DNA from: an uncultured Pseudomonadota bacterium
GTDB lineage: Bacteria; Myxococcota_A; Polyangia; Fen-1088
Direction of reading: 5' to 3'
DNA length: 64,000 nucleotides
NCBI GenBank assembly: GCA_963737345.1
Contig: CAVTSM010000003.1
Coordinates: forward strand, 2,099,171 to 2,163,170
The notes beneath the pieces are model-generated. The model was not told the DNA's origin and did no database searches. It worked only from the letters and a program-made list of their open reading frames with translations. Made by a program: the position numbers and the translations under genes. Positions 12,011-55,100 of this stretch are shown piece by piece. Positions within the stretch are counted from its first letter, which is position 1. Each line of letters starts with the position of its first letter.

Positions 12011-13216
12011 TCAACCCTTCACGCAGAGAACCTGTTTCAGCTCGACGACCACTTCGACCAGGTCGGCCTGGTTCTTCATCACCTGATCGATGGGCTTGTA
12101 GGCGGCGGGGATCTCGTCGAGGACCCCGGCGTCCTTGCGGCAGCAGACACCCGCGGTCTGCGCGGCCAGATCCTCGACTGTGTAGGCGCGCTTGGCGGCG
12201 CCGCGTGACATCCGCCGTCCGGCGCCGTGCGACGCGCTCTGGAAGGACTCGGCATTGCCGAGGCCCCGCACCACGTAGCTCTGGGTCCCCATGGATCCGG
12301 GAATGATCCCCAGCTCGCCGGCGCCCGCGCGGATCGCCCCCTTGCGCGTGACGATCACCTCCTCACCGAAGTGAGTCTCCTCGGCGACGTAATTGTGATG
12401 ACAGAGGATGGGCGCCTCGTATGCGACCGGGCGCCCGAGGTGCGGTTCGACGACGCGCGCGAAGACGTCGCACAACAACTGGAACATCACGCGCCGATTC
12501 AAGAACGCATACCGCTGCGCCCAAAACAGGTCGTGGCGATAGGCGGCCATCTCGGGGGTGCCCGCCAGAAAGACGGCCAGGTCGCGATCCGGCAGCTCGG
12601 CGTTGTGCGCCAGCCGCTTGGCGGCGGCGATGTGCACCTCGGCCAGCTGCTTGCCGATGTTGCGCGACCCCGAGTGCAGCATCAGCCACACCCGGCCGTC
12701 GCTGCCCCGGCAGACCTCGATGAAATGGTTGCCACCGCCCAGCGTGCCGACCTGCCGTTTGGCCGTGCTCAGCCGATCGCGCACCTTCGGCGTGAGGTCG
12801 CGGAACTGGGTGAACAGCTGCAGGCCGTCGCGCGCGATCGCGTCGGGCATCCCATGCTTGAACACGGGCTCGTCGTGCGCGTTGAAGCCCACCGGAATGG
12901 CCCGCTCGACCGCGCTGCGCAGCGGACTCAGCGAATCGGGGAGCTCGTCCGCGCGCACCGACGTGCGGATGGCGCCCATCCCGCACCCGATGTCGACGCC
13001 CACGGCCGCGGGCGAAACGGCGCCGCGCATGGCGACGACCGAACCGACGGTGGCGCCCTTGCCGAAATGCACGTCCGGCATGGCGGCCACGTGATGGAAC
13101 ACCCACGGCAACGACGCCGTGCGCTTCAGCTGATCCAGCGCGGAGCTCTCGACCTCATGGACGGGCGCCCACACCTTGATCGGAACGTTCGCGCTGTGAA
13201 CGACGGAAGCCGGCAT
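12011..13216 (-). CDS. rtcB: RNA-splicing ligase RtcB
   Basis: HFGKGATVGSV...GGGNHFIEV...SASHGAGRRMSR motifs. 401 aa. Confidence 0.9.
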   Translation of the reverse strand: MPASVVHSANVPIKVWAPVHEVESSALDQLKRTASLPWVFHHVAAMPDVHFGKGATVGSVVAMRGAVSPAAVGVDIGCGMGAIRTSVRADELPDSLSPLRSAVERAIPVGFNAHDEPVFKHGMPDAIARDGLQLFTQFRDLTPKVRDRLSTAKRQVGTLGGGNHFIEVCRGSDGRVWLMLHSGSRNIGKQLAEVHIAAAKRLAHNAELPDRDLAVFLAGTPEMAAYRHDLFWAQRYAFLNRRVMFQLLCDVFARVVEPHLGRPVAYEAPILCHHNYVAEETHFGEEVIVTRKGAIRAGAGELGIIPGSMGTQSYVVRGLGNAESFQSASHGAGRRMSRGAAKRAYTVEDLAAQTAGVCCRKDAGVLDEIPAAYKPIDQVMKNQADLVEVVVELKQVLCVKG

Positions 13217-14974: not shown

Positions 14975-16900
14975 TCAATGTGCCGTCATTCGCAGCGCGT
15001 TCGCAATCAGGTCCGGCGGCACCGCCGGCGGCGGCACGCGGCGGCGGCCACGCGCGGGGTCAAACCAGGTCCGCACGTCCAGCTCCAGGCCGATGCCGTG
15101 CATGTAGTTGTAGAGAGCCTTGCGCAGCCCCTGCCCCAGCCGAGCGTGGTCAGTGCCCACCGGGTCCTCGAAGGGGACTTCGTTGCGCGCGAACGTCGAG
15201 GTCGGACGCAGCAGCCGGATGCCGTAACGTTCCGGCTGTGCGCCGATGGGGCTCCAGGCGGTGGCCGCAAAGCGGTGCCAGAACGCGGACTGGATGCACC
15301 CTTCGGCGAACAGCTGGCGCACGCGCTCGAGGGCGTCGACCGTCTCCTGCTCCGTCTCCGTCGGAAAGCCGTACATCAAGTACGCGTGCACCAGGATGCC
15401 GGCGTCGGTCAACGCGCGCGTCACGCGGGCGACCTGCGCGACCGTCACCCCCTTTTGCATGAGCGCCAGCAGCCGGTCCGACGCCACCTCCAGCCCGCCG
15501 GTGAGCGCGATGCACCCCGATCGCGCCAGCAGCCGCGCCAGCGCGGGCGTGAAGGTCTTTTCGAAGCGAATGTTCCCCCACCACGAGACGACGACCTGAC
15601 GCGCCAGCAATCTCTCGGCGATCGCCCGCAGCATGGCGGGGGGCGCCGCCTCGTCGACGAAGTGGAACCCGGTCTGCCCGGTCTCGGCCACCATCGCCGC
15701 GATCCGGTCGACGATCAGATCGGCCGACGCCGTCTCGTATCGAGCGATGTACGGCAGCGAGACGTCGCAGAACGTGCACTTCTTCCAGTAGCAGCCGCGC
15801 GCGACGGTCAGCTTGTTCCAGCGTCCGTCGGACCAGAGCCGGTGCACGGGGTTCAGCATCTCGAACAGCGACACGTACTGGTGAAGGGGCAGCCCGGCGT
15901 AGGTGGGCGTCCCGGCCTGCTCGTGCGAAACCTCGACGGCGGCCGGATCGGCCTTCAACACCACGCGGCCAGCTTCGCGGACGAAGGTGCGGTGCAACGG
16001 CACGGCGTCGCCGCGCAGGTGGCGGATCAGGTTCAGCAGCGGGCGCTCGCCGTCGTCGAGAGTCACGTAGTCGAAGTAGTCGAACACCCGCGGCTCGCGC
16101 AGCTCGCGCAGCTCTGTGTTGACGTACCCCCCGCCCAGCGCCAGGCGCACCGCCGGCCGCGCGCGGCGGATGGCCCGGGCCAGGCGAAAACCACCGTAGA
16201 CGTTGCCCGGGAACGGCGCGGTGACGCCCACCAGATCGGGCTCGTGCCGGCGCGCCAGCTCGGCGCCGATCTCGTCGGTCATCTGGTCGACCAGCGTGGG
16301 CGGACCTTCCAGCGCCGCGCGCAACGGCTCGAAGCTGGTCGCGCTGACGGCCAGCCGCTCGCCGTAGCGCGCCAGCTCGAAGCGCGCGTCGATGCCGTCG
16401 CGGATGACGTCGGCCAGATCGTCGACGTAGAGGCTCGCGACGTGCTTGGCCCGGTCGGCGATCCCCAGCGCCCCGAAGGCCCAGCCGAGCGGCCCCTCCG
16501 ACTCGTCACCCGCCAGCGGCGCGAACCGCGGCCCCTCGGGCAGGAAGGTCCGCGCGGCGATCCGCGACGCCAGGTTCGGATCGCGCCCCTGCAAGAACGC
16601 GATCACGCTCTCGACGGTCTCCAGGTAACGGTCCGGGTTGTCGAGGAACGCCGCCACCGACGGGCCCATGGCCCGCCGCGCGGCCGGCTTGGCGGACGCG
16701 ATCGCTTCGCGCACGCGCGCCAGCCCAGGGCGCGAGAAGAGGCCCAAGAACAGCTCCAGCGCGGGATCGGCCTGCGCCAGGTCCAGCTCCAGCGTGGCGG
16801 CGTGCTGGCGCAAAAATCCGGTCAGGTAGGCCGTCGCCGGGTACGGCGTGTTCAGCTGCACCATCGGCGGCGTCACCAGCAGGACGCGCATACCCGTCAT
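14975..16900 (-). CDS. B12-binding-domain radical SAM protein (Cx4Cx2C variant)
   Basis: N-terminal B12-binding-like Rossmann domain (MRVLLVTPPMVQLNTPYP...), then GCYWKKCTFCDVS and an Elp3/TIM-barrel-like region. Start taken at the ATG that forms an ATGA overlap with the DnaJ-like stop (16897-16900). The track ORF extends into an R/G-rich artefact. Confidence 0.8.
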   Translation of the reverse strand: MTGMRVLLVTPPMVQLNTPYPATAYLTGFLRQHAATLELDLAQADPALELFLGLFSRPGLARVREAIASAKPAARRAMGPSVAAFLDNPDRYLETVESVIAFLQGRDPNLASRIAARTFLPEGPRFAPLAGDESEGPLGWAFGALGIADRAKHVASLYVDDLADVIRDGIDARFELARYGERLAVSATSFEPLRAALEGPPTLVDQMTDEIGAELARRHEPDLVGVTAPFPGNVYGGFRLARAIRRARPAVRLALGGGYVNTELRELREPRVFDYFDYVTLDDGERPLLNLIRHLRGDAVPLHRTFVREAGRVVLKADPAAVEVSHEQAGTPTYAGLPLHQYVSLFEMLNPVHRLWSDGRWNKLTVARGCYWKKCTFCDVSLPYIARYETASADLIVDRIAAMVAETGQTGFHFVDEAAPPAMLRAIAERLLARQVVVSWWGNIRFEKTFTPALARLLARSGCIALTGGLEVASDRLLALMQKGVTVAQVARVTRALTDAGILVHAYLMYGFPTETEQETVDALERVRQLFAEGCIQSAFWHRFAATAWSPIGAQPERYGIRLLRPTSTFARNEVPFEDPVGTDHARLGQGLRKALYNYMHGIGLELDVRTWFDPARGRRRVPPPAVPPDLIANALRMTAH

Positions 16901-17568
16901 ACGGCGACGCGGATCCGGGCCCGCTGCTGCGCGACGCCCGCCTTGCGCAGATTGGCCGTGATCAGCATGCCGTCGCGGGCCGCGCGCGGGATCGGCACCA
17001 CCACCGGCACGCTGTCGGTCACCGTCCCGGCGTGCTCGCAGCGGATGCACCAGACGCCGCGCGGGCTAGCGACCCCGCCGCAGGTCGGGCACAGGATCCG
17101 CATGCGCATCTCGACGACCGCGGATCCACCGACCGCCGCCTCCGCCGCGCTGAGGGACAGCTCCAGCACGCCATCGGCGGTCAGCCGCGCCACGCCGTCG
17201 GCCTGCAAGCGATCGAGCGGACCGCTCACGCGCGGCAAGACGTTGGGGATCGGCTTTTCCCAGCTCGCCGTCCAGCCGCTGTTCGACACCGTCCAGGCGT
17301 TGGCGTTTCCCCGGACCGCTCCCGGCGCGAAGGCCCCCTGGGATTCGCGCTGCAGCAGATGCGCGTCGTAGGCGGTGCGCGCCGTCGGATCCGACAGCAT
17401 CCGATAGGCCTCGGCGATGCGCCCGAACGTCTCGGCGCTGGCGGCGCCGGCTCGGTCGGGGTGATGTTGCAGCGCCAGCTTGCGGTAGGCGCGCCGGATC
17501 TCCGCGCCGCTGGCTGAGCGGGAAACGCCCAGCAGCACGTAAAGGTCGACGGAGGGCGGCGCGCGCAC
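16897..17568 (-). CDS. J-domain protein with C-terminal CxxC...CxxC zinc finger
   Basis: DLYVLLGVSRSASGAEIRRAYRKLALQHHPDR (HPD motif) and ...CPTCGG...CIRCEHAG. GTG start. Confidence 0.7.
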   Translation of the reverse strand: MRAPPSVDLYVLLGVSRSASGAEIRRAYRKLALQHHPDRAGAASAETFGRIAEAYRMLSDPTARTAYDAHLLQRESQGAFAPGAVRGNANAWTVSNSGWTASWEKPIPNVLPRVSGPLDRLQADGVARLTADGVLELSLSAAEAAVGGSAVVEMRMRILCPTCGGVASPRGVWCIRCEHAGTVTDSVPVVVPIPRAARDGMLITANLRKAGVAQQRARIRVAV

Positions 17569-21668: not shown

Positions 21669-21772
21669 AGGGCCTGGGCCCGGGGTGGCAGGACCACCCA
21701 CATCGCGGCTCGCCTTGATGGCTCCAGCAACCTGGAGTAACTTTCCAGCGTTTCCGCAGGGCCCCTCTGCCG

Positions 21773-22285
21773 ATGCTCGCGCTCGCATTCACGTTCGCCG
21801 CCACCGCGCTCGCCGCCGCACCCTCGGCCAGCGTCACCTGCGCTGACGGTCCGGCCAGCTGCGACGGCGCCTGGGATGCGCCGGTCGCGTTCGTCGCCGA
21901 CAGCGGGCAAGACCACGACGGTCCGCGCGAATACGCGACGCCCGCCGAGGTCGACTGCCCCGAGCCGCCGCAGCCGGCCCCGGTGCTGGCCAGCGGCGAA
22001 TGCAGCGAAACGCCGGCCGCTTTCTGGTACCGCGTCTCCCGCTATCCCGAAAGCGAGTTGCCGGCGGGGCGTCTGGCCCCTTCGACCCGTCGCGCCCACC
22101 ACGCCGGCGCGGTGACCGGTGGCCTGCCCGACGTCGGCCATTTCACGAAGCTGGCGACTCAGCCGATAGCGCTCGTCGCGCTGCCAGCACTGTTCCCGGC
22201 GGCCTCGCGCCGCCTCGATCACACCTGGGCGCAGGCGCTTCCCGCGCGCGCCCTGGCGCCGCCCGACCGGCCGCCTCGCGCCTGA
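21773..22285 (+). CDS. Secreted hypothetical protein
   Basis: Signal peptide MLALAFTFAATALAAAPSASV; Cys-containing mature region. Confidence 0.4.
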   Translation: MLALAFTFAATALAAAPSASVTCADGPASCDGAWDAPVAFVADSGQDHDGPREYATPAEVDCPEPPQPAPVLASGECSETPAAFWYRVSRYPESELPAGRLAPSTRRAHHAGAVTGGLPDVGHFTKLATQPIALVALPALFPAASRRLDHTWAQALPARALAPPDRPPRA

Positions 22286-22396
22286 CCGCGAAGCAACGGT
22301 TGTGAATTTGACGCGCGTGTGAGGGAGCGGGCCGCGCGGCTCGCACGCGCTGGGATTTCGTCGCGCGGCGTTTCGTTTCCGAATGGAGAGACAGTC

Positions 22397-25015
22397 ATGA
22401 ACAAAGGGACAGTATTGGTCTTGCTGGTGGTGGTGCTGGGAGGGGGCTATGGCCTTGGCCGGCTGGCGACCCGCGACAAGAGCGGCTCGCCCGGCGGCGC
22501 CGCTACGGCGGCGACGGGCGGCTCGACCGCGGGCGACGGTGTCGACCGCGTGCGCGTGCCGCTGGATGGGCCCATGAAGGGCCCGGCGAACGCCAAGGTG
22601 ACGATCGTCGAGTTCTCCGACTTCCAGTGCCCCTTCTGCGGCCGCGTCATGCCGACTTTGCAGCAGATCGAGAAGAACTACGGCAATGACGTGCGCACCG
22701 TGTTCATCCACAACCCCCTTCCCTTCCACCCCAACGCCGAGCCGGCCGCCGAGGCGGCCATCGCCGCCGAGGCGCAGGGGAAGTTCTGGCAGATGCACGA
22801 CAAGCTGTTCGCGAACCAGCAGAACCTGACCCGGCCCGACCTGGAGAAGTACGCCCAGGAGATCGGCCTGGACATGAACAAGTTCAAGGCGGCGCTGGAC
22901 TCGCATTCCGGCAAGAAGAAGATCGATGCGGACCTGGCCGTCGCCAAGCAGGTGGGCGTCCAGGGAACGCCGAACTTCTACATCGACGGCCGCAACGTGC
23001 AGGGCGCGCAGCCGTACGAAGAGTTCAAGAAGGTCATCGACGACGAGATCCAGCGCGCCAACAAGCTGATCGCGCAGGGAACGCCGGCCAACCAGGTCTA
23101 CACGGCGTTCATGAAGGGCGCGAAGACGGCGGCGCAAGCGCAGGCCCAGGCCGCCAAGGGCCCCGGCGCCGGCACCGAGGTCTACAAGGTCGCCGTGGGC
23201 GACGCCCCGACCCGCGGCAGCAAGCAGCCGAAGGTGACGATCGTCGAGTACTCGGACTTCCAGTGCCCGTACTGCAGCCGCGCCGCCGCCACGCTGGACA
23301 CGCTGATGAAGGACTACGCCAGCGACGTCCAGCTGGCCTACAAGCACAACCCGCTGCCGTTCCACCAGCAGGCCATGCCGGCCGCGCTGGCCGCCGAGGC
23401 CGCGCGCGAGCAGGGCAAGTTCTGGGAGATGCACGACAAGATGTTCAAGAACCAGACGAGCCTGCAGCGCGCTGACCTCGACAAGTACGCGCAGGAAGTC
23501 GGCCTGGACATGGGCAAGTACAAAGAGGCGATGGAGAAGGAAAAGGGGAAGGACCGCATCAAGAGCGACATGGCCGAGGCCGAGAAGTTCGGCGCGCGCG
23601 GCACCCCCAACTTCTTCATCAACGGCCACAACTTCCGGGGCGCCCAGCCAATCGAGGCCTTCAAGGCCGTCGTCGACGAGGAGATCAAGAAGGCCGACGC
23701 CAAGATCGCCTCGGGCACGCCGCGCGGGCAGGTCTACGCCGCGCTGACGCAAGGCGGTCTCGACAAGGCGGCCGCGCCGCCGCCACCCAAGGCCAACCCG
23801 GGCGAGCCCGACGCCAACGTGCGCTACCGCGCCGAGATCAAGGGCGCGCCGGTGAAGGGCGCCAAGGATGCGCCGGTCACGATCGTGCAGTGGTCGGACT
23901 ACCAGTGCCCGTTCTGCAGCCGCGTCGAGCCGACCATCAACAAGGTGATGGACGACTACAAGGGCAAGGTGCGCGTGGCGTGGCGCGACCTGCCGCTGCC
24001 GTTCCACCCCAACGCGATGCCCTCGGCGATCGCGGCCCGCGCCGCCGGCGAGCAGGGGAAGTACTGGGAGATGCACGACAAGCTGTTCGCCGATCAGCAG
24101 CACGAGGATCGCGCGACGTTCGAGAAGTACGCGCAGGAGCTGGGCCTCAACATGGCCAAATTCAAGGCGGCGCTGGACGCGCAGAAGGGCAAAGAGGCCA
24201 TCGAGGCGGACGCGGCGGCCGGCGGGAAGATCGGCGCGCGCGGCACGCCGGCCTTCTTCGTCAACGGGAAGTTCCTCTCGGGCGCGCAGCCCTACGAGGT
24301 GTTCAAGGCCAAGATCGACGAGGAGCTGAAGAACGCCGACGGGCTGATCGCCAAGGGGACGCCGAAATCCAAGGTCTATGACGCCCTGATGAAGGACGCC
24401 AAGACCGAGGTGGCGGCCGCCCCGGCGCAGGCCGCACAAGGCGCCGAGAAGACGCCCGAGCAGGACGACACCGTCTTCAAGGTGGCCGCCGGCAACGCGC
24501 CGGCCAAGGGCAGCAAGAACGCCCCGCTGCAGGTGGTCATCTTCTCGGACTTCCAGTGCCCGTTCTGCAAGCGCGTCGAGCCGACGCTGACGCAGATGGA
24601 GAAGGAGTACGGCGGCAAGGTGCACATGGCGTGGAAGAACTACCCACTTCCGTTCCACCAGAACGCCGAGCCGGCGGCCGAGGCGGCCATGGCGGCCAAC
24701 GCCCAGGGCAAGTTCTGGCAGATGCACGACAAGCTGTTCGAGAACAACACGGCGCTCGATCGCCCCAGCCTCGAGAAGTACGCGCAGGAGCTGGGCCTCG
24801 ACATGGCCAAGTTCAAGGCGGACCTGGACGCGCAGAAGTACAAGGACTCGATCGCGGCCGACACCAAGGAAGGCCAGGCGGTCGGCGTGAACGGTACCCC
24901 GGCGGTGTTCATCAACGGGCGCAAGATCAGCGGCGCCTACCCCTGGGAGACGTTCAAGAAGATCGCCGACGACGAACTGGCGAAGAAGCAGGGCAAGCTC
25001 GCCAAGAAGGGGTAG
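22397..25015 (+). CDS. Tetra-domain DsbA-like thiol:disulfide oxidoreductase (four tandem thioredoxin-fold domains in one polypeptide)
   Basis: ATG 22397 after ggagagacagtc. Signal/TM MNKGTVLVLLVVVLGGG. Four about-213-aa repeats, each with F/W-SD-F/Y-QCP(F/Y)C...NPLPFH...QGKFW.MHDKLF...GTP.FFING; CxxC motifs near nt 22628, 23267, 23909 and 24559. Confidence 0.85.
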   Translation: MNKGTVLVLLVVVLGGGYGLGRLATRDKSGSPGGAATAATGGSTAGDGVDRVRVPLDGPMKGPANAKVTIVEFSDFQCPFCGRVMPTLQQIEKNYGNDVRTVFIHNPLPFHPNAEPAAEAAIAAEAQGKFWQMHDKLFANQQNLTRPDLEKYAQEIGLDMNKFKAALDSHSGKKKIDADLAVAKQVGVQGTPNFYIDGRNVQGAQPYEEFKKVIDDEIQRANKLIAQGTPANQVYTAFMKGAKTAAQAQAQAAKGPGAGTEVYKVAVGDAPTRGSKQPKVTIVEYSDFQCPYCSRAAATLDTLMKDYASDVQLAYKHNPLPFHQQAMPAALAAEAAREQGKFWEMHDKMFKNQTSLQRADLDKYAQEVGLDMGKYKEAMEKEKGKDRIKSDMAEAEKFGARGTPNFFINGHNFRGAQPIEAFKAVVDEEIKKADAKIASGTPRGQVYAALTQGGLDKAAAPPPPKANPGEPDANVRYRAEIKGAPVKGAKDAPVTIVQWSDYQCPFCSRVEPTINKVMDDYKGKVRVAWRDLPLPFHPNAMPSAIAARAAGEQGKYWEMHDKLFADQQHEDRATFEKYAQELGLNMAKFKAALDAQKGKEAIEADAAAGGKIGARGTPAFFVNGKFLSGAQPYEVFKAKIDEELKNADGLIAKGTPKSKVYDALMKDAKTEVAAAPAQAAQGAEKTPEQDDTVFKVAAGNAPAKGSKNAPLQVVIFSDFQCPFCKRVEPTLTQMEKEYGGKVHMAWKNYPLPFHQNAEPAAEAAMAANAQGKFWQMHDKLFENNTALDRPSLEKYAQELGLDMAKFKADLDAQKYKDSIAADTKEGQAVGVNGTPAVFINGRKISGAYPWETFKKIADDELAKKQGKLAKKG
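22600..25015 (+). repeat. Four imperfect tandem DNA repeats of about 640-650 bp encoding the DsbA domains
   Basis: Periodic recurrence of tcggacttccagtgcccgt(t/a)ctgc... and ..ggcaagttctggcagatgcacgacaagctgttc.. blocks. The antisense ORFs in the track are mutually similar. Confidence 0.7.
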
Positions 25016-25025
25016 AACCCTTCCG

Positions 25026-25634
25026 ATGAAGCATCCCCCAGCCGCGACACGGCCAGAGGTTGGTGTGTCGCGGCTGCGCCGACTGGCGCCGCTCGCGCTG
25101 ACGGCGCTGGCGGTGGCGTTCGTGGCGGTCAGATTTCTGGCGGCCACCCACGACACCCTGGCGCGCACCCGCGACGGCGCCTGCGCCGCGCTCAAGCCCG
25201 ACCCGCTGCCGCCGATCCTGACCAGCGGCGTGACGCCCGACTTTCAGCTCCCGGACCTGGGCGGACACACCGTATCGCTGAGCGCGCAGCGCGGACACCC
25301 GGTGCTGCTGAATTTCTGGGCCACTTGGTGCCCCCCGTGCGTGGACGAGGTCCCCTCGCTGGAGGACCTGGCCCGCCGGATCGACGGAACCGACCTGCGC
25401 CTGCTGGCGGTCAGCGTCGACGACGACTGGAACGCCATCCGCCGCTTTTTCGTGAAGGGGAGCGCGATGGGGGTCCTTTTGGATACGTCGCACGACGTGC
25501 CCAAGAAGTTCGGCACCACGCAGTACCCGGAAAGCTTCCTCATCGACGCTGCCGGTCGCGTCCGCTATTACTTCATCAACAAGCGCGACTGGTCCGGTCC
25601 CGAAGCCGTCGCCTGCCTGGAAAGCTTGCGATGA
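25026..25634 (+). CDS. TlpA/ResA-like periplasmic thiol-disulfide oxidoreductase (redoxin)
   Basis: N-terminal TM anchor. LLNFWATWCPPCVDEVP. Starts 10 nt after the tetra-DsbA stop. Confidence 0.8.
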   Translation: MKHPPAATRPEVGVSRLRRLAPLALTALAVAFVAVRFLAATHDTLARTRDGACAALKPDPLPPILTSGVTPDFQLPDLGGHTVSLSAQRGHPVLLNFWATWCPPCVDEVPSLEDLARRIDGTDLRLLAVSVDDDWNAIRRFFVKGSAMGVLLDTSHDVPKKFGTTQYPESFLIDAAGRVRYYFINKRDWSGPEAVACLESLR

Positions 25635-26866
25635 CTTCAGCAGCACCTCTGCCGGTCCCGCCGCCGGCGGTGCGCGCGCGTGGCATCCCAGCGCTGCCGC
25701 TGCTGACGCTGATCAACTTCTTCAATTACCTCGACCGCCAGGTCGTCTACGGGATGACGCCGCACATCGGCTCGGCGTTCAACCTGTCCAATTTCAAGCT
25801 GGGCTGGCTGGCGTGGGCCAACCTGTTCGTGTTCGCGGTCGCCTCGCTGATCTCCGGGCCGATCGCCGACCGTGTGGGCCCGCGCAAGGTGATCTTCACG
25901 GGCATCCTGGTCTGGTCGATCGCCACCATCGGCTCGGCGCTCTCGACGTCGTTTCCGATGCTGCTGTTCTTCCGGGCGCTGGTGGGCGTGGGCGAAGGCG
26001 CGTACGGACCGTCGGCCAACACACTGCTGTGCGCCGACGCGCCGCCCGAAAAGCGCGGCCGCGCGCTGGGGATTTACAACATCGGGATGGCGCTGGGCGG
26101 AACCAGCGGCCTGGTGCTAGGAACCATGCTGGCGCCCATCGTCGGGTGGCGCGGGGTGTTCTGGATTGCGGGCGGCCCGTCGGTCTTGCTGACACTGGCG
26201 GCCGCCTTCGTCGCCGCGCCGGATCGCCTGATCCGCCCGCAGACCCTGCCGGCCCGCACCTATCTGCTGTCGCCGGCTTACGTGATGGCGGTCGGGGGCG
26301 GCGTGTTGGCCACCTTCGGCGCCAGCGCGCTCATCTTCTGGGTGCGGACGCTGGTCATCGAAGAGCGCCACCTGAGCGTCACCTTCGGCAGCATCTACAT
26401 GGCGTTCGTGGGCCTGTTCTGTGGCGCCGGCGGCGTCATCGTGGGCGGCTACATGGGCGACGCGCTGAACCGGCGGCGCCGCGGCGGCCACGCGATGACC
26501 ATCGGCGTCTCGATGTTGGCCGCGGTGCCGGTGGGCGCGCTGGCCCTGACGCTCCCCTGGCAGCCGGCGTTCCTGATCCTGACCGCGGGTGCGGCCTTCC
26601 TGCTGTCCGTCTACAACGGCCCTTCCGCCGCGGTGATCGACGAGCTGGGACCACCTCAATACGCGGCAACCCTGCAGGCTGTCTCGATGTTCAGCCTGCA
26701 CGTGCTCGGAAACTCCCCCGCGCCGTCCATCATCGGCCGGATCTCCGACCAGCTCCACGTCCCGATCTCGGGCGCGCTGCAGGCGGCGATCGTCGCGTTT
26801 GGCCTCTCGGGCGTGCTGTTCATCTTCGTTGCACGCCGGCAGCGCACGATGCCCCAATATCACTGA
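25631..26866 (+). CDS. MFS transporter
   Basis: ATG 25631 overlaps the TlpA-like stop (ATGA). 12-TM pattern; LDRQVVYGMTPHIGSAFNLSNFKLGWL...GPIADRVGPRKV. The track ORF starts upstream in an R-rich artefact. Confidence 0.8.
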   Translation: MTSAAPLPVPPPAVRARGIPALPLLTLINFFNYLDRQVVYGMTPHIGSAFNLSNFKLGWLAWANLFVFAVASLISGPIADRVGPRKVIFTGILVWSIATIGSALSTSFPMLLFFRALVGVGEGAYGPSANTLLCADAPPEKRGRALGIYNIGMALGGTSGLVLGTMLAPIVGWRGVFWIAGGPSVLLTLAAAFVAAPDRLIRPQTLPARTYLLSPAYVMAVGGGVLATFGASALIFWVRTLVIEERHLSVTFGSIYMAFVGLFCGAGGVIVGGYMGDALNRRRRGGHAMTIGVSMLAAVPVGALALTLPWQPAFLILTAGAAFLLSVYNGPSAAVIDELGPPQYAATLQAVSMFSLHVLGNSPAPSIIGRISDQLHVPISGALQAAIVAFGLSGVLFIFVARRQRTMPQYH

Positions 26867-26870
26867 GCCG

Positions 26871-27593
26871 ATGACCACCGCCCCCACGACGCAGGACTAT
26901 TACGATCGGTTCGCCGCCGGCTACGAGGCCGAGCGCCACCACGGCTACCACCGGCTGATCGACGACCTGGAGCTGGACCTGGTGCGCCGCTTCGGCGCGG
27001 GCCGCGACGTGTTCGAAGCCGGCTGCGGCACAGGCTTGCTGCTGCGTGAGGCGGCCGCGGTCGCCCGCTCGGCGGTGGGGCTGGATTTGTCCCGCGGCAT
27101 GCTGCGGCCGGCGCGCGCGCGCGGCTTGCGCGTGGTCCAGGGTTCGCTGACCGACGTGCCGCTCCCGTCGGCGTCGTTCGATCTGGTCTACAGCATGAAG
27201 GTCCTGGCCCACGTTCCGCCCATCGAGCGCGCGGTGGCGGAGCTGGCGCGTCTGGTGCGCCCGGGCGGCCATTTGCTGCTCGAGTTCTACAACCCGTTCT
27301 CGCTGCGCTATCTGGCCAAGAGGCTGGGCGGCCCGGGGCGGATCGCCGCCGACGGCACCACCGAGAAGGACGTGTACACGCGATTCGACACGCTGGCGCG
27401 CGCGCGCAGCTACTTGCCGGCCGGCGTCGACCTGATCGCCGTACGGGGCGTGCGCGTCGTGACACCGTCTTCCCACGTCTTCCGCCTGCCGGCGCTGGCG
27501 CGCCTCTTCGCGTGGGCCGAGCGGACGGCTTGCGACCTGCCCGTGTTGCGCAACCTGGGCGGTTTCATGATCCTGGTCGCGCAAAAGCGCTGA
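26871..27593 (+). CDS. Class I SAM-dependent methyltransferase
   Basis: ATG 26871, 4 nt after the MFS stop. VFEAGCGTGLL motif I. Confidence 0.75.
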   Translation: MTTAPTTQDYYDRFAAGYEAERHHGYHRLIDDLELDLVRRFGAGRDVFEAGCGTGLLLREAAAVARSAVGLDLSRGMLRPARARGLRVVQGSLTDVPLPSASFDLVYSMKVLAHVPPIERAVAELARLVRPGGHLLLEFYNPFSLRYLAKRLGGPGRIAADGTTEKDVYTRFDTLARARSYLPAGVDLIAVRGVRVVTPSSHVFRLPALARLFAWAERTACDLPVLRNLGGFMILVAQKR

Positions 27594-27597
27594 AGCC

Positions 27598-28245
27598 ATG
27601 GCCATCCGCTTCGAGCTGCCGCCCCGCGGGACGCTGACCCCGAACAACGCGGACGATCCGCTGCCGTACTATTACAAGCCATCGGTCGGCTGGCTGTACC
27701 GCCACCGCCTGCAGATGGGGCTCGACTTCCTGGACGCCCGTCCCGCCGGCCGCGTCCTCGAGGTGGGGGTCGGCAGCGGCGTGCTGGTGCCGACGCTGAC
27801 CCGCGCCTTCGCCGCGTACACGGGCACCGACCTGACCCTGGCGCCGAATCTGGATCGGCTGGTGGCGCCCAGCTGTCGCGCGGAGTTCCGGCGGGCCGAT
27901 CTCCTGCGCGACGGCGATCTTCCCGCCGGCCACTTCGACGCCATCGCTTGCTTCTCGGTGCTCGAGCACATCGCCGACGCAGACGGCGCCGCCCGCAGCC
28001 TGGCCCGCGCGCTGGCGCCCGGCGGCACGCTGGTGACCGGCTACCCGATGGTCAGCCCCCTCATGACGCGCGCCTTCGCGCTGATCGGGTTCGACCGCAT
28101 CGACGACCACCACGTCAGCCCGCCGGCGCGCATCGCCGCCGCGCTGGGGCGCGTTCTGACGCCGCGCGGGCGCGCCGCCTTCCCGCCCCGTGCGCCGGTG
28201 GCCGCGGCGCTGTACCAGTGCACCGCCTGGACGCGGCCGCGATGA
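27598..28245 (+). CDS. Class I SAM-dependent methyltransferase
   Basis: ATG 4 nt after the previous stop. VLEVGVGSGVL motif I. Confidence 0.7.
   Translation: MAIRFELPPRGTLTPNNADDPLPYYYKPSVGWLYRHRLQMGLDFLDARPAGRVLEVGVGSGVLVPTLTRAFAAYTGTDLTLAPNLDRLVAPSCRAEFRRADLLRDGDLPAGHFDAIACFSVLEHIADADGAARSLARALAPGGTLVTGYPMVSPLMTRAFALIGFDRIDDHHVSPPARIAAALGRVLTPRGRAAFPPRAPVAAALYQCTAWTRPR

Positions 28246-32432: not shown

Positions 32433-32433
<1 letters not shown>
30943..32433 (-). CDS. Fusion: class I SAM methyltransferase (N) :: GT2 Dpm1/polyprenyl-phosphate-sugar synthase-like glycosyltransferase (C)
   Basis: Start ATG 32433 (MTATTTAPGPP) in a TGATG overlap with the kinase stop. LEVGCGGGDL motif I. C-terminal half VSVVVPTRNEAGNV...MILDADLTVPPEDLPSFYD...LCGTKVLWR (GT2 DxD). 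The track ORF extends 220 codons into an R-rich artefact. Confidence 0.75.
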
Positions 32434-35162
<2,729 letters not shown>

Positions 35163-37238: not shown

Positions 37239-38959
37239 GCGTCCTCTTTTTTACCCGTTTCCGGAGGTGCGGAATAGTTTTCCTGTGCGGCGCGATCCAG
37301 GTCGATGATCTGCGCGCCGCCCACGTAGCTCTTGGTTTCGTAACGCGTCAAGCTCCCCAGCTTGCGGACGATGGCCGCCATGCGGTCGGCCTCTTCCAGA
37401 ATCGTCCGCACCATGGGCAGGTGCGCGTCGTCGGGACCGAGCTTGCGGATCAGCACTTGCGCGTAGCCCATGACCGAGGTCAGCGGCTGATTCAGCTCAT
37501 GCGCGGCGGCACCGGCCAGCTCGACGGCCACCGCCTGCTTTTGCGAGATGGCCAGCTTCTCTTGCGCCGACGCCAGCCGCTCTTCCATCCGGATCCGGTC
37601 CCGCAGGTCCGAAAAGACGCCCACGGTCGCGATCTCCCGACCGTCGTCGTCCAGCACCAGCGCCGCCGAGATGGACACCGGGACCCGCTCGCCGCCCGCC
37701 GACAGCAGCTCGCGCCGCACCGGCTCCAGCCGGCCTCCGCCGCCGTGCTCGGCCGACCGGATGAGGTGCATGACCTCGCGGCCCACGCCCGGCGGGTAGA
37801 GCCGTTTGACCGAAATCTTCCCGATGACGTCCACCGCCTTATAGCCGCAGATCCGCTCGGCGCCCTGGTTGAAGAGGACGATCGTGCCGCGCATGTTGGC
37901 GGCGATGATCCCGTCGACAGCCGAGTTGAGGATGCGGTTCAGAAACTCGCTCGTCCGCCGCAACTCGCGCTCTAGCTCACGCGCCAGCGTCACGTCACGG
38001 AACGAGAAAATCGCGGCCTCGTGCTCGCTCAAAACGGCGATCGACGCAACCGACACGGCAATGCGATCGCCCGACGTGGTGACCAGCTCGAGATCGAAGT
38101 TTTCCACCGGTTCGGCCGCGATGGCCCTCTCGATCCGCGCGGCCAGCCCCGGTCGGAACGCTTCGGGCACGATCTGGGCGATGGGTTTCCCCCCCAGGCC
38201 GTCGCGCGCGTAACCGGTCATCTCTTCGGCGGCGCGGTTCATGTAGAGGACTTGGCCCGCGCCATCCAGCACGAAAATTCCGTCGGACGCGCTGTCGATG
38301 AAGGCGCGGTAGCGCTCGATCGCGCGAATTCGCCCCTCCTCGCGCACCTCGGACTGCGTGACACGACGGGTCCGTCCGCGCAGCGGATCCAGCGCTTTGG
38401 CGCCGCGGATGACGATCCCGAGCATCGATCCCGCGACACGCGCCGCGGCCAGCGCGCCCTGCGCAGCCTCGTCGCCGCGGAACCGCGCCACCAGCATGCC
38501 TGCCGGGCGACCGCCGACCAAGACGGGGACCGTCGCGGTCGTCTGTCCGGCGGCATCGGGTCCCACCGAGACGGCGCTCTCGTCGACCGCGCGGCGCAAG
38601 TTCGGGTGCTGGTCCAATGACCAACGCACGCCGGCCGAGACGGGCGAAGGGTCGTCCCCCCCGCTGTCGGCCACCAGGTACGCAGCGTCCGGATCCGTCA
38701 GCAGCGCGAACAGGCTGACGGACGTCGCGCCAAGAGCCCGCGCCACGTGCTCGACGGCCGCGTGGAGCTGACTTTCGCCCGTTCCGACGGCCAGCACCTG
38801 CGCCGCTTGCGCCAAACTGTCGAGCGCATCCGCCTCGAGGGCGCCGTTCACGGTCGCCGGCTCCGACGCGGGCGCGGCAACAACACGCGGGCGGCGGCGG
38901 CGGCGGCGCTCAGGACCTCCCGCACGGGGACGCCGGTCTGCGCGCCCAGCCGACGGCAA
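37235..38959 (-). CDS. GAF-PAS-PAS sensor protein with HisKA-like DHp domain but no HATPase_c domain
   Basis: PAS motifs (IFVLDGAGQVLYMNRAAEEMTGY; IIAANMRGTIVLFNQGAERICGY). DHp H-box AAAHELNQPLTSVMGYAQVL. Ends about 60 aa after the H-box. N-terminal 35 codons are R-rich and overlap larC, so the true start is probably downstream (~38860). Confidence 0.65.
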   Translation of the reverse strand: MPSAGRADRRPRAGGPERRRRRRPRVVAAPASEPATVNGALEADALDSLAQAAQVLAVGTGESQLHAAVEHVARALGATSVSLFALLTDPDAAYLVADSGGDDPSPVSAGVRWSLDQHPNLRRAVDESAVSVGPDAAGQTTATVPVLVGGRPAGMLVARFRGDEAAQGALAAARVAGSMLGIVIRGAKALDPLRGRTRRVTQSEVREEGRIRAIERYRAFIDSASDGIFVLDGAGQVLYMNRAAEEMTGYARDGLGGKPIAQIVPEAFRPGLAARIERAIAAEPVENFDLELVTTSGDRIAVSVASIAVLSEHEAAIFSFRDVTLARELERELRRTSEFLNRILNSAVDGIIAANMRGTIVLFNQGAERICGYKAVDVIGKISVKRLYPPGVGREVMHLIRSAEHGGGGRLEPVRRELLSAGGERVPVSISAALVLDDDGREIATVGVFSDLRDRIRMEERLASAQEKLAISQKQAVAVELAGAAAHELNQPLTSVMGYAQVLIRKLGPDDAHLPMVRTILEEADRMAAIVRKLGSLTRYETKSYVGGAQIIDLDRAAQENYSAPPETGKKEDA

Positions 38960-40176
38960 TCTTCGAACTCGGGCTGGGCGCCCAGGATCTGGCCGTCCAG
39001 CGCCGCGACCTTGACGCGGACGGGGCCGTAGGACGTCTGGACCTTCGCAAACGACCGGGCCAGCACGACCCGGTCGAGCGCGCGCCGGCGCAACCCCAGC
39101 GTGGTCGACGCCGTGAAGAAAGCCCGCTCGACCGCCGCGCCAGTGGCCGCCGGCGCCAGCGCCGAGACCTGCAACGCCGGACGCCCCTTCTTCATGATGA
39201 TGGGCGTCGACCAGACGTCCACCGCGCCAGCCTCGAAGAGCGCGTCGAACAACGGACCGACCAGCTGGGGGTTCATGTCGTCGAGGTTGGCTTCGATCAA
39301 GACGACGTCCGTGGCCGCCGCGACGTCCGGCTCCCCGACGAGCTCGCCCAGGCTCACCCGAAGGACATTGGCGCGATCGGGCAGCTCGCGCGTGCCCGCG
39401 CCGTACCCGACCGCCCGCAGGCGCATTGGCGGCAACGGGCCGAAGCGATCGACGACCGCCGCCAAAATCGCAGCGCCCGTCGGGGTCGTCAGCTCGCCCT
39501 GTCCTTCGGGCACGATTGGCACACCTGTCAGCAGGGCGGCCGTCGCGGGCGCCGGCACCGGCACCGGCCCGTGGGCAGTGCGCACGACGCCCGTGCCCAC
39601 GACCGGCGGCAGCGATCCGATCGACGCCGGCGCCAGGTGAGCGATGGCCGCCGCGACGCCGACCACGTCGGCGATCGAATCGTAGGCGCCGACCTCGTGG
39701 AACGTGACCTGCCCGATCTTTCTGCCGTGCAGGGCGGCCTCGACCTCGGCGATGCGCAGGAAAATGTCTCCCGCCAGCGCCCGGACGTCGGCGTCGAGCC
39801 GGGCGCGCGCGAGCAGCCGCTTGATCTCGGCGTAGTCGCGATGGTCGTGGGCGTGGGCATGTTCGTGACCGTGGCCCTGTGCGTGTTCGTGGCCGTGGCC
39901 CTGTGCGTGTTCGTGGCCGTGTTCGGTGGCGCCGTGGTCCGGGGCGGGCCGGCGGGTCTGGCGGCGCTTGGGTTTCCCCGGCCAGCTCACATCGAAGCTG
40001 CGACCCACGTAGGCGCCGCGCGTGCGCCGGCCGAAGACGGCGCGCAAGCCGCGGACGCCCATCGCGGCGATCGCCCGCTGGACCACGGCCGCCGGCACAC
40101 CCGCGTCGACCAACGCCGCGACGGCCATGTCGCCGGCGATCCCGGACGTGGGCTCGAAGTGCAGATGCACGCTCAC
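38848..40176 (-). CDS. larC: LarC (nickel-pincer cofactor Ni insertase, DUF111 family) with His-rich insert
   Basis: GTG start in a GTGA overlap with the larB stop. MSVHLHFEPTSGIAGDM...His-rich HGHEHAQGHGHEHAQGHGHEHAHAHDH...GTLGGGNHFIEV-like core. Identified from memory of the LarC family. Confidence 0.75.
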   Translation of the reverse strand: MSVHLHFEPTSGIAGDMAVAALVDAGVPAAVVQRAIAAMGVRGLRAVFGRRTRGAYVGRSFDVSWPGKPKRRQTRRPAPDHGATEHGHEHAQGHGHEHAQGHGHEHAHAHDHRDYAEIKRLLARARLDADVRALAGDIFLRIAEVEAALHGRKIGQVTFHEVGAYDSIADVVGVAAAIAHLAPASIGSLPPVVGTGVVRTAHGPVPVPAPATAALLTGVPIVPEGQGELTTPTGAAILAAVVDRFGPLPPMRLRAVGYGAGTRELPDRANVLRVSLGELVGEPDVAAATDVVLIEANLDDMNPQLVGPLFDALFEAGAVDVWSTPIIMKKGRPALQVSALAPAATGAAVERAFFTASTTLGLRRRALDRVVLARSFAKVQTSYGPVRVKVAALDGQILGAQPEFEDCRRLGAQTGVPVREVLSAAAAAARVLLPRPRRSRRP

Positions 40177-40928
40177 TCTCGGATACGATTCAGCATAGCC
40201 GCCATGCGGCCCGCGCCGAAGCCGTTATCGATGTTCATCACGGCCACACCCGACGCGCACGAGTTCAGCATGCCCAGCAGCGCAGCGATGCCGCCCAGAC
40301 TGGCCCCGTACCCGACGCTGGTCGGTACGGCGATCACTGGGCGCGCGAACAGCCCGCCGACCACGCTGGGCAAAGCCCCTTCCATACCGGCGACCACGAT
40401 GACGATCTCGGCGGCGGCGACCGTCTCGCGGTGCGCGAGCAGCCGATGCAGGCCCGCCACACCCACGTCGTAGATGCGCGCGACGCGGTTGCCGGACAGC
40501 TCGGCGGTGACGGCAGCCTCCTCTGCGACGGGAACGTCCGACGTGCCGGCGCTGATGACCGCGATGACTCCCCGTCCTTTGTCGGCCGGTGGGTTCTCGC
40601 CCACGACGACGATTCGTGGCAGCGCCAGATACCGCGCGCCGGGGACGTCGGCGACGACGACCGCTGCCGCCTCCGGCGAGACGCGGGTGGCGAACACCGC
40701 CGCGCCGCCGGCAGCCAATTCCTTGAGGATCGCCGCGATTTGCTCGGGGGCCTTACCGGTCCCTAGCACCACCTCGGGAAAGCCCGTGCGCAGGTGCCGG
40801 TGGGTGTCGACGTGCGCGAAATCGAGCGCCCGGAACGGCAGGTCGCGCAGCGCCGCCATCGTGTCGTCGACGGTGGCGCGCCCGGCCTGCACGTCTTCCA
40901 GCAGCACCCGCAGCCGTTGAGGATCCAT
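40173..40928 (-). CDS. larB: LarB (PurE-like nickel-pincer cofactor carboxylase/hydrolase)
   Basis: ...IAVISAGTSDVPVAEEAAVTAELSGNRVARIYDVGVAGLHRLL...VVAGMEGALPSVVGGL...VPTSVGYG; a PurE-fold C-terminal half with a LarB-type N-terminal extension. Confidence 0.75.
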   Translation of the reverse strand: MDPQRLRVLLEDVQAGRATVDDTMAALRDLPFRALDFAHVDTHRHLRTGFPEVVLGTGKAPEQIAAILKELAAGGAAVFATRVSPEAAAVVVADVPGARYLALPRIVVVGENPPADKGRGVIAVISAGTSDVPVAEEAAVTAELSGNRVARIYDVGVAGLHRLLAHRETVAAAEIVIVVAGMEGALPSVVGGLFARPVIAVPTSVGYGASLGGIAALLGMLNSCASGVAVMNIDNGFGAGRMAAMLNRIRE

Positions 40929-40952
40929 GCGGACCCCCACCTTACCACTACG

Positions 40953-52159: not shown

Positions 52160-55100
52160 TCAACGACCCGCGAACGGGCCGGGCAGCAGCGGGCGGTCCA
52201 GGATGCGCTGGGAGCGGATGTAGCGTTCCAACGCGTCGACGGCTTTCGTGTACATGGCGTTGGCGTAGTAGGCGCGGCCCAGGTAGTAGAGGGCTTCGGG
52301 GCGGCGCGCCACGTACGTTGCATCGTCGGCCAGCGCCTTGAGCTCGTCGATCGCGTCGCCGTAAAATTCCGCCTTGTAGTCCAGAAAGCCGCTCAGCAAC
52401 GAGAAGTCCTGGCCCATGCCGGTCCAGATCTCCTCGGGCCACTTCTCCAAAATCTTGTAGGCGGTGGCGTAGCGGCGATCCCCGACTTCGGCGATGACCG
52501 AGGGGTATTCCTCTTTCACCTGATGGACGTATTCCGGGTGGGCGGCGGCGATCTGCGCCGGCACCGCCGGAGCGGCCAGCTGGTCGCTGGGCGCCAGCGG
52601 GATCTCGGGATCACGGTCGAGGCGCGTGGACACCAGGTTCAGCAGCAGGCGCGCGTGCTGCGCCTCGGTCGAATCCCCCGCCGCCTCGGCGCGCCGGGCC
52701 CACAGCTCGGCCTCGCGCGCCTTGCCGTGTGCCAGCAAGCTGCGCGACAGCAGCCCTGCCCGCGCGCTCCGCTGCGGGCCCTCGTACCCCTTCACCAGAC
52801 CGGTCAGCCGTCCGTAGGGCCACAGCGGGCCGTACACCTTGGCCAGGTACGGATCGAACTTGGCGTAGCCCAACAGGTCGCGCGGTGCCGCGAACTCGAT
52901 GCGGGCGTTGTCGTCGGTGTTTCGCGGCGCGGCCGCGGTGAACGACTCCAGCTCCTCCGGGCCGAGCAGCAGATAAGCCAGCGCGTCGTGCGGCGAGTTG
53001 AGCCCACCCCGCCGCGCCTCGGCGCGCACCGTCGGGTTCTGGAAGGCCCGCTCGAGAAGATCGATGTCCAGCGGCAGCGGCCGCATGCTACCCACCAGGA
53101 TCGTGTCGGACGACAGGTCCTCGGCGGCGAAGACGTACACGTACGGGAACTCGTCGCGAACGGTGCCGTAGATGGTCTTGATGTTCCAGGGCGCCATCTC
53201 GTACAGCTGCGCCCACTGGCAGAAGATGCCATTCGGCGCCAGGCGCCGCTTCACGTCGCGGAAATACTCGCGCGTGAACAGGTTCGAGACGCCCGTCAGC
53301 CAGGGGTTGGACGGTTCGCTGACGATGACGTCGAACTGGTCCTTGCGCTGGGTCAGGAAATTGCGCCCGTCGCCGACGCGCGCCGTGACCTGCGGGTTTT
53401 GCAGGGGGCGGTGGTTGTCGTTGTCGAAAAAACGCGACGCCCGGTAGATCGCCGGCTCCAGCTCGACGACCTCCAGCGAACCGATCGGGTATTGCGTGAT
53501 CGCGCCCGCCGTGACGCCCGACCCGAACCCCACCAGCGCCACCTTGGGCGGCGCCGGTTGATCGTAGAACAGCAGCGGCAACAGGCCGACCATGATCTGC
53601 GTCGGCATGTCGGCGTCGTTCGAGGCGTCGACCTTTCCGTTGTTCTTCAACGAAAACGTCTTGGCGTCCCACTGGTCGACGGTGACCGTCGTCGCCACGC
53701 CATCCTCGTAGAAGACCAGCTTGGGATCCTTCCAGACGTGCTTGCGAATCTTGCGGCTGATGTACTCGCGGGCGACCGACATCCGGAAGAATCCCGACGA
53801 GAAGCTGACCAGGTTCCAGCGGGGCAGCAGCAACCCCAGCGCAGCCAGCCCGATGGCCGCGGCCACTCCAGCGCGACGCTTGCGAACCGGCAGCTCGGGA
53901 GCGACCGCGAAAAGCAGCGCCGCCAGCGCCAGATCGATCGCCACCGCGACGTAGATGCCCCGCTGTAGGCCCAGCTTGGGCAGCACCACGAACCCCGACA
54001 GGAAAGATCCCACGATGGCGCCGACGGTGTTCAGCGCGTAGGCGTGCCCGACGTCGCGCCCGACGGACTCCAGCCCGCCGGCCGCGATCCGCATCGTCAG
54101 CGGGAAGACGCCGCCCATCAGCACTGTGGCCGGCAGCAGGATCATGCAGGCCATCACGAACTGACAGGCCAGGATCGTGTCGACGCCGAAGCTGGTCGAT
54201 TGCAGCAGCCAGGTGAAGACGTAGGGCATCCGGTCGGTGAAGAGGTACGTCGCGCCAACCGCGACCGCCGTCCCCAGGTGCAGCAGGGCCAGCCACCGCA
54301 CCGGGTGAGGCGTCCGCTGGCTGGCACGCCCGAAGAGCGCGGCGCCGATGCCGAGCCCGATCAGGAACGCCAGTAGGATGAGGGTGAACGAGAAGATCGA
54401 CGAGCCCAGCAGCACCGCCAGCGCGCGCGTCCAGAGGACCTGCAGCGTCATGGCCGTCGCGCCCGAAACCGCGAAAGCCCCCAGCGCCGCGCGCCGCGAG
54501 CGGGGGTCGATGGCCGGCGGCGGAGGCAGCACCGGCCCCTCCAAGTTGGCGGCCGCAGCCGCGGCGTCCAGGCGCTCGTCGATCGAGATCCCCTCGCCTC
54601 CGGCGTCGGCGGGCAGGACGCGACGGGCGACCAGAATGGCCCCGGCCAGCACCAAATCGAACGACGCCGCGGTGACGTTCGTCCAGCGCAACCCCATGGT
54701 CGGCAGGAAAATGAAACCGGCGCAGAAGGCACCGGCGACCGCCCCGAACAGGTTCACGGAGTAAAGCGTCCCGATCCGCAGCCCGATGCGGCGCAGCTCC
54801 CACGGACGGGTGACGAAATGACGCGCCAAGAACGGCAGCGTCGCCCCCATGAGCGTCGTCGGAACCAGCAAGAGACCGGCTGACGCGATGAACCGCAGCA
54901 CGGACAGCAGCGCGTACCGGTCGCCGAAGGCGCTCCAGAGCGTGCGATTCAAGCCCGGGTAGGCCAGCATCACCAGCGGCACCAGCAGCGCGTAAAGGCC
55001 GATGCCGGCCTCGGCCAGGGCGTAAGCGCGCACCGGGTTCTTGAGGCGATCGGCGTAGCGCCCGGCCAGGTAGGACCCCAGGCCCAGGCCGCCCATGAAC

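Follow-up and report, generated by a model that had tools for sequence, protein, structure and literature searches.

The biology of DsbA has been worked out on single-domain enzymes, and the choice between oxidation and isomerisation has been tied to the oligomeric state of the protein, with DsbC forming dimers and ScsC trimers. The oxidases TsdA (DsbA) of Corynebacterium diphtheriae and BdbD of Bacillus subtilis have one catalytic domain per chain and a membrane anchor or a location in the envelope, and the gene for BdbD adjoins that for its partner BdbC. ScsC is soluble, and both ScsC and Wolbachia alpha-DsbA2 bring several catalytic domains together in one particle through an N-terminal trimerisation helix. 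Eukaryotic protein disulfide isomerase (PDI, a-b-b'-a') carries four thioredoxin-fold domains per chain on flexible links, two of the four being catalytic. For ScsC, the choice of upstream partner open to a DsbA-like domain has been shown to depend on the oligomeric state (PMC11634996). UGGT (TRXL1-4; PMC7687155) is alone among solved proteins in having four DsbA-like folds per chain, and sequences with two or three DSBA domains were noted in passing in 2009 (PMC2757866). Literature searches on tandem or multidomain DsbA and on Myxococcus together with DsbA gave no study of such arrays beyond this passing remark, and a phylogeny paper on VKOR does not mention myxobacteria. Here we describe a gene for four DsbA-like domains in one chain, located in a stretch of 64,000 nucleotides (nt; hereafter the window) from an uncultured bacterium of the GTDB lineage Myxococcota_A, Polyangia, Fen-1088 (assembly GCA_963737345.1, contig CAVTSM010000003.1, positions 2,099,171 to 2,163,170). 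The gene is real and encodes four complete DsbA-type domains in what is, judged from the translation, probably an exported periplasmic protein tethered to the membrane. Its features, in window coordinates and amino acids (aa), are the following.

22397..25015, + strand: coding sequence, stop codon included, of the four-domain DsbA-like protein, 872 aa
22397..22465, + strand: N-terminal hydrophobic segment, aa 1-23, MNKGTVLVLLVVVLGGGYGLGRL, probable uncleaved signal anchor
22466..22567, + strand: tether rich in Gly, Ala, Thr and Ser, aa 24-57, between the anchor and domain 1
22568..23116, + strand: DsbA-like domain 1, aa 58-240, CPFC at aa 78-81 (nt 22628-22639), Thr191-Pro192
23204..23752, + strand: DsbA-like domain 2, aa 270-452, CPYC at aa 290-293 (nt 23264-23275), Thr403-Pro404
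23846..24394, + strand: DsbA-like domain 3, aa 484-666, CPFC at aa 504-507 (nt 23906-23917), Thr617-Pro618
24497..25012, + strand: DsbA-like domain 4, aa 701-872, CPFC at aa 721-724 (nt 24557-24568), Thr834-Pro835

The coding sequence was identified from the list of open reading frames (ORFs), its translation and ribosome-binding site, the Pfam matches and a 100% identical database protein (P0001). The ribosome-binding site GGAGAG is followed by 7 nt and then the ATG at 22397, and because 52 orthologues have the N-terminus MNKGT... in common, the start was placed there and not at the GTG at 22319. The ORF counted from that GTG (22319-25015, + strand) had the strongest coding signature of the region, with a G+C content at third codon positions (GC3) of 0.95 in a window of about 69% G+C. 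The 872-aa protein was matched in four stretches by each of two Pfam families, Thioredoxin_4 (PF13462; 403 bits, cut-off 23.2, E 1.3e-121) and DSBA (PF01323; 338 bits, cut-off 25.6, E 1.5e-101). It contains eight cysteines in total, in the motifs CPFC (78), CPYC (290), CPFC (504) and CPFC (721). By profile score, by fold and by the proline loop it belongs to the DsbA family.

An AlphaFold2 model was built with an alignment of 53 sequences. Its mean predicted local distance difference test score (pLDDT) was 84, and it showed four confident DsbA folds with a pLDDT of about 90. Each domain had the order beta-alpha-beta, four to five helices, beta-beta-alpha, with the CxxC at the N-terminus of helix 1. 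Domains 1, 2 and 3 were each followed by a conserved short helix (GTPxxQVYxAL) and then by a linker rich in Ala, Pro and Gln; domain 4 forms the end of the protein and is without this helix. The pLDDT was below 50 at residues 1-44, 246-255, 461-468 and 674-684, and the predicted template modelling score (pTM) was 0.37, and we therefore read the model as beads on a string. In 53 orthologues with 71-95% identity, all eight cysteines and all four Thr-Pro pairs of the cis-Pro loop were invariant. The domain cores were conserved at 74-85%, with the core of domain 3 the most conserved (85%), as compared to 53% for the N-terminal tether, the lowest value. This pattern of conservation argues solidly for all four catalytically intact DsbA-type sites being kept under selection on flexible links. 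At the N-terminus, a hydrophobic stretch covers aa 5-22, and there is no lipobox, as the segment has no Cys (none occurs before residue 78). Similar hydrophobic N-termini occur in homologues. We infer from this, and from the low pLDDT of the segment and the tether, that the N-terminus is an uncleaved signal anchor with a flexible tether.

The four copies of the domain are encoded by in-register DNA repeats whose starts lie 636, 642 and 651 nt apart and whose identity to the reference copies is 63-77%. Codon-aligned, any two of the domains were 65-67% identical in nucleotides and 50-56% in amino acids, all pairs being about equally distant. Identity at third positions was about 0.6, and the longest exact runs shared by the copies were 19-31 bp. 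The copies are so diverged that Tandem Repeats Finder reported only trivial short repeats across the array. An earlier note on this DNA, made from the letters alone, had described an exported or anchored 872-aa polypeptide with four collinear DsbA-like domains (CPFC, CPYC, CPFC, CPFC), encoded by repeats of about 645 bp with 60-70% identity. This structural description proved right in translation and Pfam, and in the self-comparison of the repeats that the note had proposed.

The per-domain phylogeny, likewise proposed there, was carried out as an unbootstrapped neighbour-joining tree of 115 domains, in which deep nodes are weak. Domains 1 to 4 of the window protein each grouped with the domains at the same position in loci L001, L004 and L005, and for domains 3 and 4 the grouping extended to L010, L012 and L013, whose overall identity is only about 50-56%. 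Domains 2 and 3 look like internal duplicates, at the weak deep nodes of the tree. The grouping by position indicates that the four-domain order predates the divergence of these lineages and that the duplications are ancient. It is very improbable that the four copies are an expansion or collapse of the assembly, or a contingency array that recombined recently and actively. Beyond the tandem layout itself, such an explanation can draw on the copy numbers of 2-7 domains found among myxobacterial lineages and on one seven-domain protein with blocks that are 86-93% identical in amino acids. However, assemblers would not confuse repeats as diverged as these, and independent assemblies, with contigs of up to about 880 kb, agree on the same four-domain order with position-specific orthology. 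Mis-assembly and ongoing recombination at this locus are effectively excluded on these sequence comparisons. The suggestion of the earlier note that the array expands and contracts by recombination thus found no support in the lineage of the window, where the domains cluster by position and exact matches are 19-31 bp only.

Tandem DsbA arrays were found to be widespread. A word-indexed protein search gave more than 120 clusters (90% identity level) of four-domain proteins of 851-910 aa that are 70-100% identical to the query. These orthologues are named "thioredoxin domain-containing protein [Polyangia bacterium]" or "protein-disulfide isomerase" in the databases, and members of the P0001 cluster are named as Polyangia bacterium. 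A genome scan gave at least 585 array-encoding loci, and the arrays examined carry 2-7 domains, most often three. Most of the 80 loci kept were labelled Myxococcota, the rest being metagenome-assembled genomes (MAGs) labelled "Deltaproteobacteria", "Pseudomonadota" or uncultured bacterium. Groups named among them include Polyangia, Polyangiaceae, Sandaracinaceae, Nannocystis, Anaeromyxobacter, Myxococcaceae, Archangium, Corallococcus and Pyxidicoccus.

The domains per locus were counted with a hidden Markov model (HMM) built from the four window domains. Three domains were the commonest state, for example in all Myxococcaceae, and four were found in the clade of the window and a few others. 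In Polyangiaceae two adjacent three-domain genes occurred (L023, L042, L050, L053, L057, L064, L071, L073, L075), and Nannocystis sp. RBIL2 (L058) had up to seven domains in its locus, spread over three neighbouring genes (2, 3 and 2 domains) ahead of a TlpA-like ORF. In an exhaustive HMMER search of representatives at 50% identity, domain 3 alone as the query matched 3984 representatives at E<=1e-30. Of the top 150, 149 were multi-domain (13 with two domains, 108 with three, 25 with four, 2 with five and 1 with six), and those with a name were all Myxococcota, Bradymonadales included. The array of L018 (9995-15034, + strand) has seven domains in about 1680 aa, and its N-terminus carries a lipobox-like LFAC. 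Its domain pairs D4/D7, D3/D6 and D1/D5 are 93%, 86% and 72% identical in amino acids, making D5-D7 a more recent block copy, and we conclude that arrays can expand by block duplication in some lineages. A protein of 1506 aa (P0032) probably resembles it. The array is broken up into overlapping frames in several MAGs whose isolate names begin with MFD (L008, L009, L019, L052, L070).

Active-site motifs across the 150 representatives (P0121-P0270) were counted by HMM-anchored alignment. About one third had at least one domain with CxxS/T (about 30 domains) or without Cys. The degenerate sites were CPFS, CPFT or CPYS, or Cys-less ones such as APAT and EPDS, often in the first or last domain, which suggests a specialisation into catalytic and non-catalytic domains as in PDI. 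The window protein has retained all four CxxC sites. The earlier note had taken the four-domain layout for unusual, and by its own yardstick, whether four-domain homologues are already common and annotated, this view has to be given up: the layout is an old, stable and very common myxobacterial trait, an uncharacterised variant and not a one-off oddity. Within a large Myxococcota family already in the databases under generic names, the window gene is a typical, conserved member.

The closest solved relatives of the array were identified with a profile of 25 array domains searched against PDB sequences. The matches were TsdA/C. diphtheriae DsbA (E 1e-33), 3gyk (6e-29), BdbD (2e-27) and ScsC (about 2e-26), with E. 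coli DsbA far more distant (7e-7). Foldseek gave template modelling (TM) scores to the target of 0.58-0.84 for 4PWO, 3GYK and BdbD. By fold and sequence together, the best relatives were C. diphtheriae DsbA/TsdA (4PWO, 7UNN), 3GYK, BdbD, Wolbachia alpha-DsbA2 and ScsC proteins. The array domains belong to the BdbD/TsdA/ScsC subclass of DsbA-type proteins (Pfam Thioredoxin_4). The best per-domain matches were TsdA/DsbA (7UNN, 4PWO) and BdbD (3EU3), with 24-36% identity. The active site of 4PWO is CPFC, as in the window domains, and the Thr-Pro loop and the helical insertion are common to both. In contrast to these single-domain proteins, the window protein has four domains and conserved inter-domain linker helices, and its gene has no partner gene nearby as that of BdbD does.

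The catalytic domains of ScsC and alpha-DsbA2 are of the same subclass (E about 1e-26 to 1e-17), and their trimers resemble the window array in the number of catalytic domains per particle. In the array this multivalency comes from duplication within the gene, giving four non-identical domains, and the protein is, by its predicted topology, membrane-tethered, unlike the soluble ScsC. PDI is alike in its four domains on flexible links, and the principle that we propose the two share is that several sites or binding surfaces act on one folding substrate. Its domains are plain thioredoxin folds, whereas all four of the array are DsbA-type with a helical insert and a CxxC, and the two have independent origins. 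The best NCBIfam model was NF041057 (Rcas_1661 thioredoxin-like (seleno)lipoprotein), which matches all four domains. Membership was rejected, as the single domains scored 98-116 bits against a cut-off of 190 and only the sum of the four passes; the window protein also has no lipobox Cys and no selenocysteine.

Downstream, the four-domain gene heads a tight run of five genes on the + strand, the other four of which are listed here.

25026..25634, + strand: membrane-anchored redoxin of the TlpA/ResA/CcmG family, 202 aa, with WCPPC and one extra Cys near each end (from Pfam, PDB relatives and conserved position)
25631..26866, + strand: major facilitator superfamily (MFS) transporter (Pfam MFS_1), its ATG overlapping the redoxin stop (ATGA)
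26871..27593, + strand: class I S-adenosylmethionine (SAM) methyltransferase, after a 4-nt gap from the MFS stop
27598..28245, + strand: second class I SAM methyltransferase, after a 4-nt gap, last gene of the + strand run

The redoxin ATG at 25026 follows the stop of the four-domain gene after a gap of 10 nt, and a terminator scan gave no terminator-like site on the + strand within the run. A WCPPC TlpA-like gene at this distance, leading into MFS and methyltransferase genes, had been claimed in the earlier note and is borne out by the ORFs and Pfam. The redoxin scored above cut-off with AhpC-TSA (83 bits) and Redoxin (80 bits; E 2e-23). It has a hydrophobic N-terminus, belongs to the TlpA/ResA/CcmG family and has as PDB relatives 3kcm, 3hdc, ResA and TlpA (1jfu). 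It remained below every NCBIfam equivalog cut-off (ResA 77 against 170 bits, DsbE 62 against 123, TlpA 61 against 230). Its extra cysteines, Cys53 (DGACAAL) and Cys197 (AVACLESLR), are both kept in the L004 orthologue. A second, structural disulfide is found in Bradyrhizobium japonicum TlpA, and Cys53 and Cys197 may have the role of such a disulfide. The one stable partner across the homologous loci is a TlpA-like gene: in the four-domain clade it is the next gene downstream at 12-19 loci, with identities as low as 36-50%, and it recurs behind the Nannocystis array. Only close relatives also have the MFS and methyltransferase genes next to the pair, and in L004 and L070 these genes are displaced, so a functional link of the array to them was set aside. 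A third methyltransferase and a PMT-family glycosyltransferase converge on the run from the other strand.

Upstream of the four-domain gene, about 730 nt (21669-22396) hold no ORF with a coding GC3 signature, which is unusually long for this gene-dense window; the interval gave no Rfam match and no sigma-70-like promoter match, and the window as a whole had no Rfam or tRNA match. In Myxococcaceae the surroundings of the array gene are a core region with relA, ridA and a penicillin-binding protein (PBP) gene nearby, as would suit a housekeeping role. Of all neighbours of the arrays, the most widely conserved is a Ser/Thr protein kinase with C-terminal PEGA domains, present at 23 loci (L025, L028, L032 and L040 included) in Myxococcaceae, Polyangiaceae and Nannocystis, as a rule in convergent orientation and at a distance of about 0.1-1.2 kb. 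Its best match in the window is a kinase at 32433-35162 (- strand), with 45-56% identity over the kinase part, 7.4 kb downstream of the array and separated from it by the tlpA-like, MFS, methyltransferase and PMT genes. Since myxobacteria have many such kinases, orthology of the two is unproven.

The reading that we favour, with a probability of roughly one half, is that the array is an inner-membrane-tethered periplasmic multi-site catalyst of oxidative folding, with all four domains individually active. After Sec export, the N-terminal hydrophobic segment would retain the array at the inner membrane. Substrates would be met as they leave the translocon, each CPxC site being able to form a mixed disulfide with one of their cysteines. 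With four sites on one flexible tether, a multi-cysteine substrate could be oxidised and its wrong pairings re-attacked with no release, and the array would be a covalent, PDI-like version of DsbA. Recycling would fall to a quinone-linked membrane partner (DsbB- or VKOR-type) with its gene elsewhere. The co-transcribed TlpA/ResA-like redoxin would be a dedicated reductant for the few envelope proteins that need a reduced state, for example at cytochrome or copper-site cysteines. In B. subtilis, ResA and CcdA are reportedly needed because BdbD oxidises apocytochrome c (Erlendsson and Hederstedt, 2002). A putative avidity platform for the folding of substrates, as the earlier note had put it, is a reasonable idea.

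Several observations weigh against oxidative folding as the function. Pfam found no DsbB, VKOR, DsbD or CcdA among the approximately 52 ORFs of the window, and none was seen among the genes conserved within 5 kb of the homologous loci, a comparison made by blastp clustering and not with profiles. As neither partner gene is in view, the recycling partner is putative, and so is the direction of electron flow. The AlphaFold2 model shows no defined inter-domain geometry that would speak for cooperation between the domains. The Thr before the cis-Pro, the multi-domain state and the TlpA-like neighbour also fit the reductive ScsC/ScsD pattern, and the literature search gave no activity data for any tandem DsbA. 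As the oxidases TsdA and BdbD and the isomerase/reductase ScsC are all close relatives, sequence alone does not separate the two kinds of activity.

The main rival reading, possible but tentative, is that the array isomerises or reduces disulfides, as a covalently linked equivalent of the trimeric PmScsC, CcScsC and Wolbachia alpha-DsbA2. Linkage of the domains would then sterically block oxidation by DsbB or VKOR, and a reductant of the DsbD, ScsB or CcdA type would keep the sites reduced, alongside the TlpA-like (ScsD-like) protein, possibly in defence against copper or oxidative stress. ScsC is among the closest solved relatives (E about 1e-26), but the oxidases TsdA and BdbD outscore it. 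Trimeric DsbA-like proteins are isomerases, and their oligomerisation blocks DsbB (PMC5524982, PMC8900818, PMC6450060, PMC11634996). The gene scsC adjoins scsD, which encodes a TlpA/CcmG-like anchored redoxin, matching the gene pair in the window (PMC10907172); a TlpA-like neighbour is, however, missing from the three-domain loci of Myxococcaceae. A Thr precedes the cis-Pro in all four domains as it does in all ScsC homologues and in E. coli DsbG (PMC10907172), and being present in all of these it favours neither model. The CxxS/T or Cys-less domains in about one third of the related arrays would fit a PDI-like division of labour. Speaking against a reductive array, neither an scsB/DsbD-like or CcdA gene nor an scsA-like gene was found in the window or among the clustered neighbours of the homologous loci, and the ScsD-like (TlpA-like) gene was the only such neighbour. 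The window protein has no N-terminal trimerisation or oligomerisation helix. Instead it has a hydrophobic anchor and a disordered tether, and a membrane anchor is also found in the oxidases BdbD and M. tuberculosis DsbA. In gene content and N-terminus the locus thereby departs from the Scs systems.

It is improbable that the array is mainly a non-catalytic scaffold for unfolded envelope proteins, a holdase or misfold sensor resembling UGGT, in which the cysteines have a minor part. UGGT was the only multi-domain solved structure among the Foldseek matches (about 830 columns), its four DsbA-like domains sense misfolded proteins (PMC7687155), and some related arrays contain Cys-less domains. With 11% identity and a root-mean-square deviation of 17-27 Å, however, the match shows only that both proteins consist of several DsbA-like folds. 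Unlike the array, the UGGT domains have no catalytic cysteines and a permuted or discontinuous topology, and they form a rigid ring fused to a glucosyltransferase. A link to UGGT had no support at the level of sequence, as UGGT was not among the top 60 profile matches and the window protein gave no match to Thioredoxin_12 to _15. The invariance of the active-site cysteines and Thr-Pro pairs among the orthologues also argues against a scaffold.

Other genes of the window were recorded in passing. Two adjacent genes at 38848-40940 (- strand) match the nickel insertion protein family PF01969, which we take to be LarC, and AIR carboxylase PF00731, the latter gene being presumably LarB-like. Together, LarC and LarB produce the nickel-pincer cofactor of lactate racemase; among the window ORFs scanned, Pfam identified no LarA. 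A B12-binding radical SAM protein (14975-17050, - strand), an RtcB RNA ligase (12011-13216, - strand) and a 1023-aa protein with a spermidine-synthase-like domain and a tetratricopeptide (TPR) repeat (52160-55231, - strand) are unlinked to the array.

The window gene alone, as an ordinary conserved member of its family, adds little, and the interest that remains is at the level of the family: across the phylum, DsbA has an architecture of 2-7 domains, which the literature searched mentions only in passing. A bolder and rather doubtful proposal is that the tandem DsbA arrays are a Myxococcota-wide, independently evolved bacterial PDI, in which linked domains split oxidation, isomerisation and substrate holding among them for the benefit of large, cysteine-rich secretomes. 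The origin of the DsbA-like domains of UGGT has been described as an open question (PMC7687155), and that the arrays were the prokaryotic source of these four domains is a more remote possibility. By building two to seven DsbA domains into a single chain, a whole phylum offers a natural experiment on the choice between oxidation and isomerisation. If the arrays do act as a built-in oxidase and isomerase, this would explain how myxobacteria fold their large exported proteomes, and the arrays may possibly be useful foldases for the production of multi-disulfide proteins.

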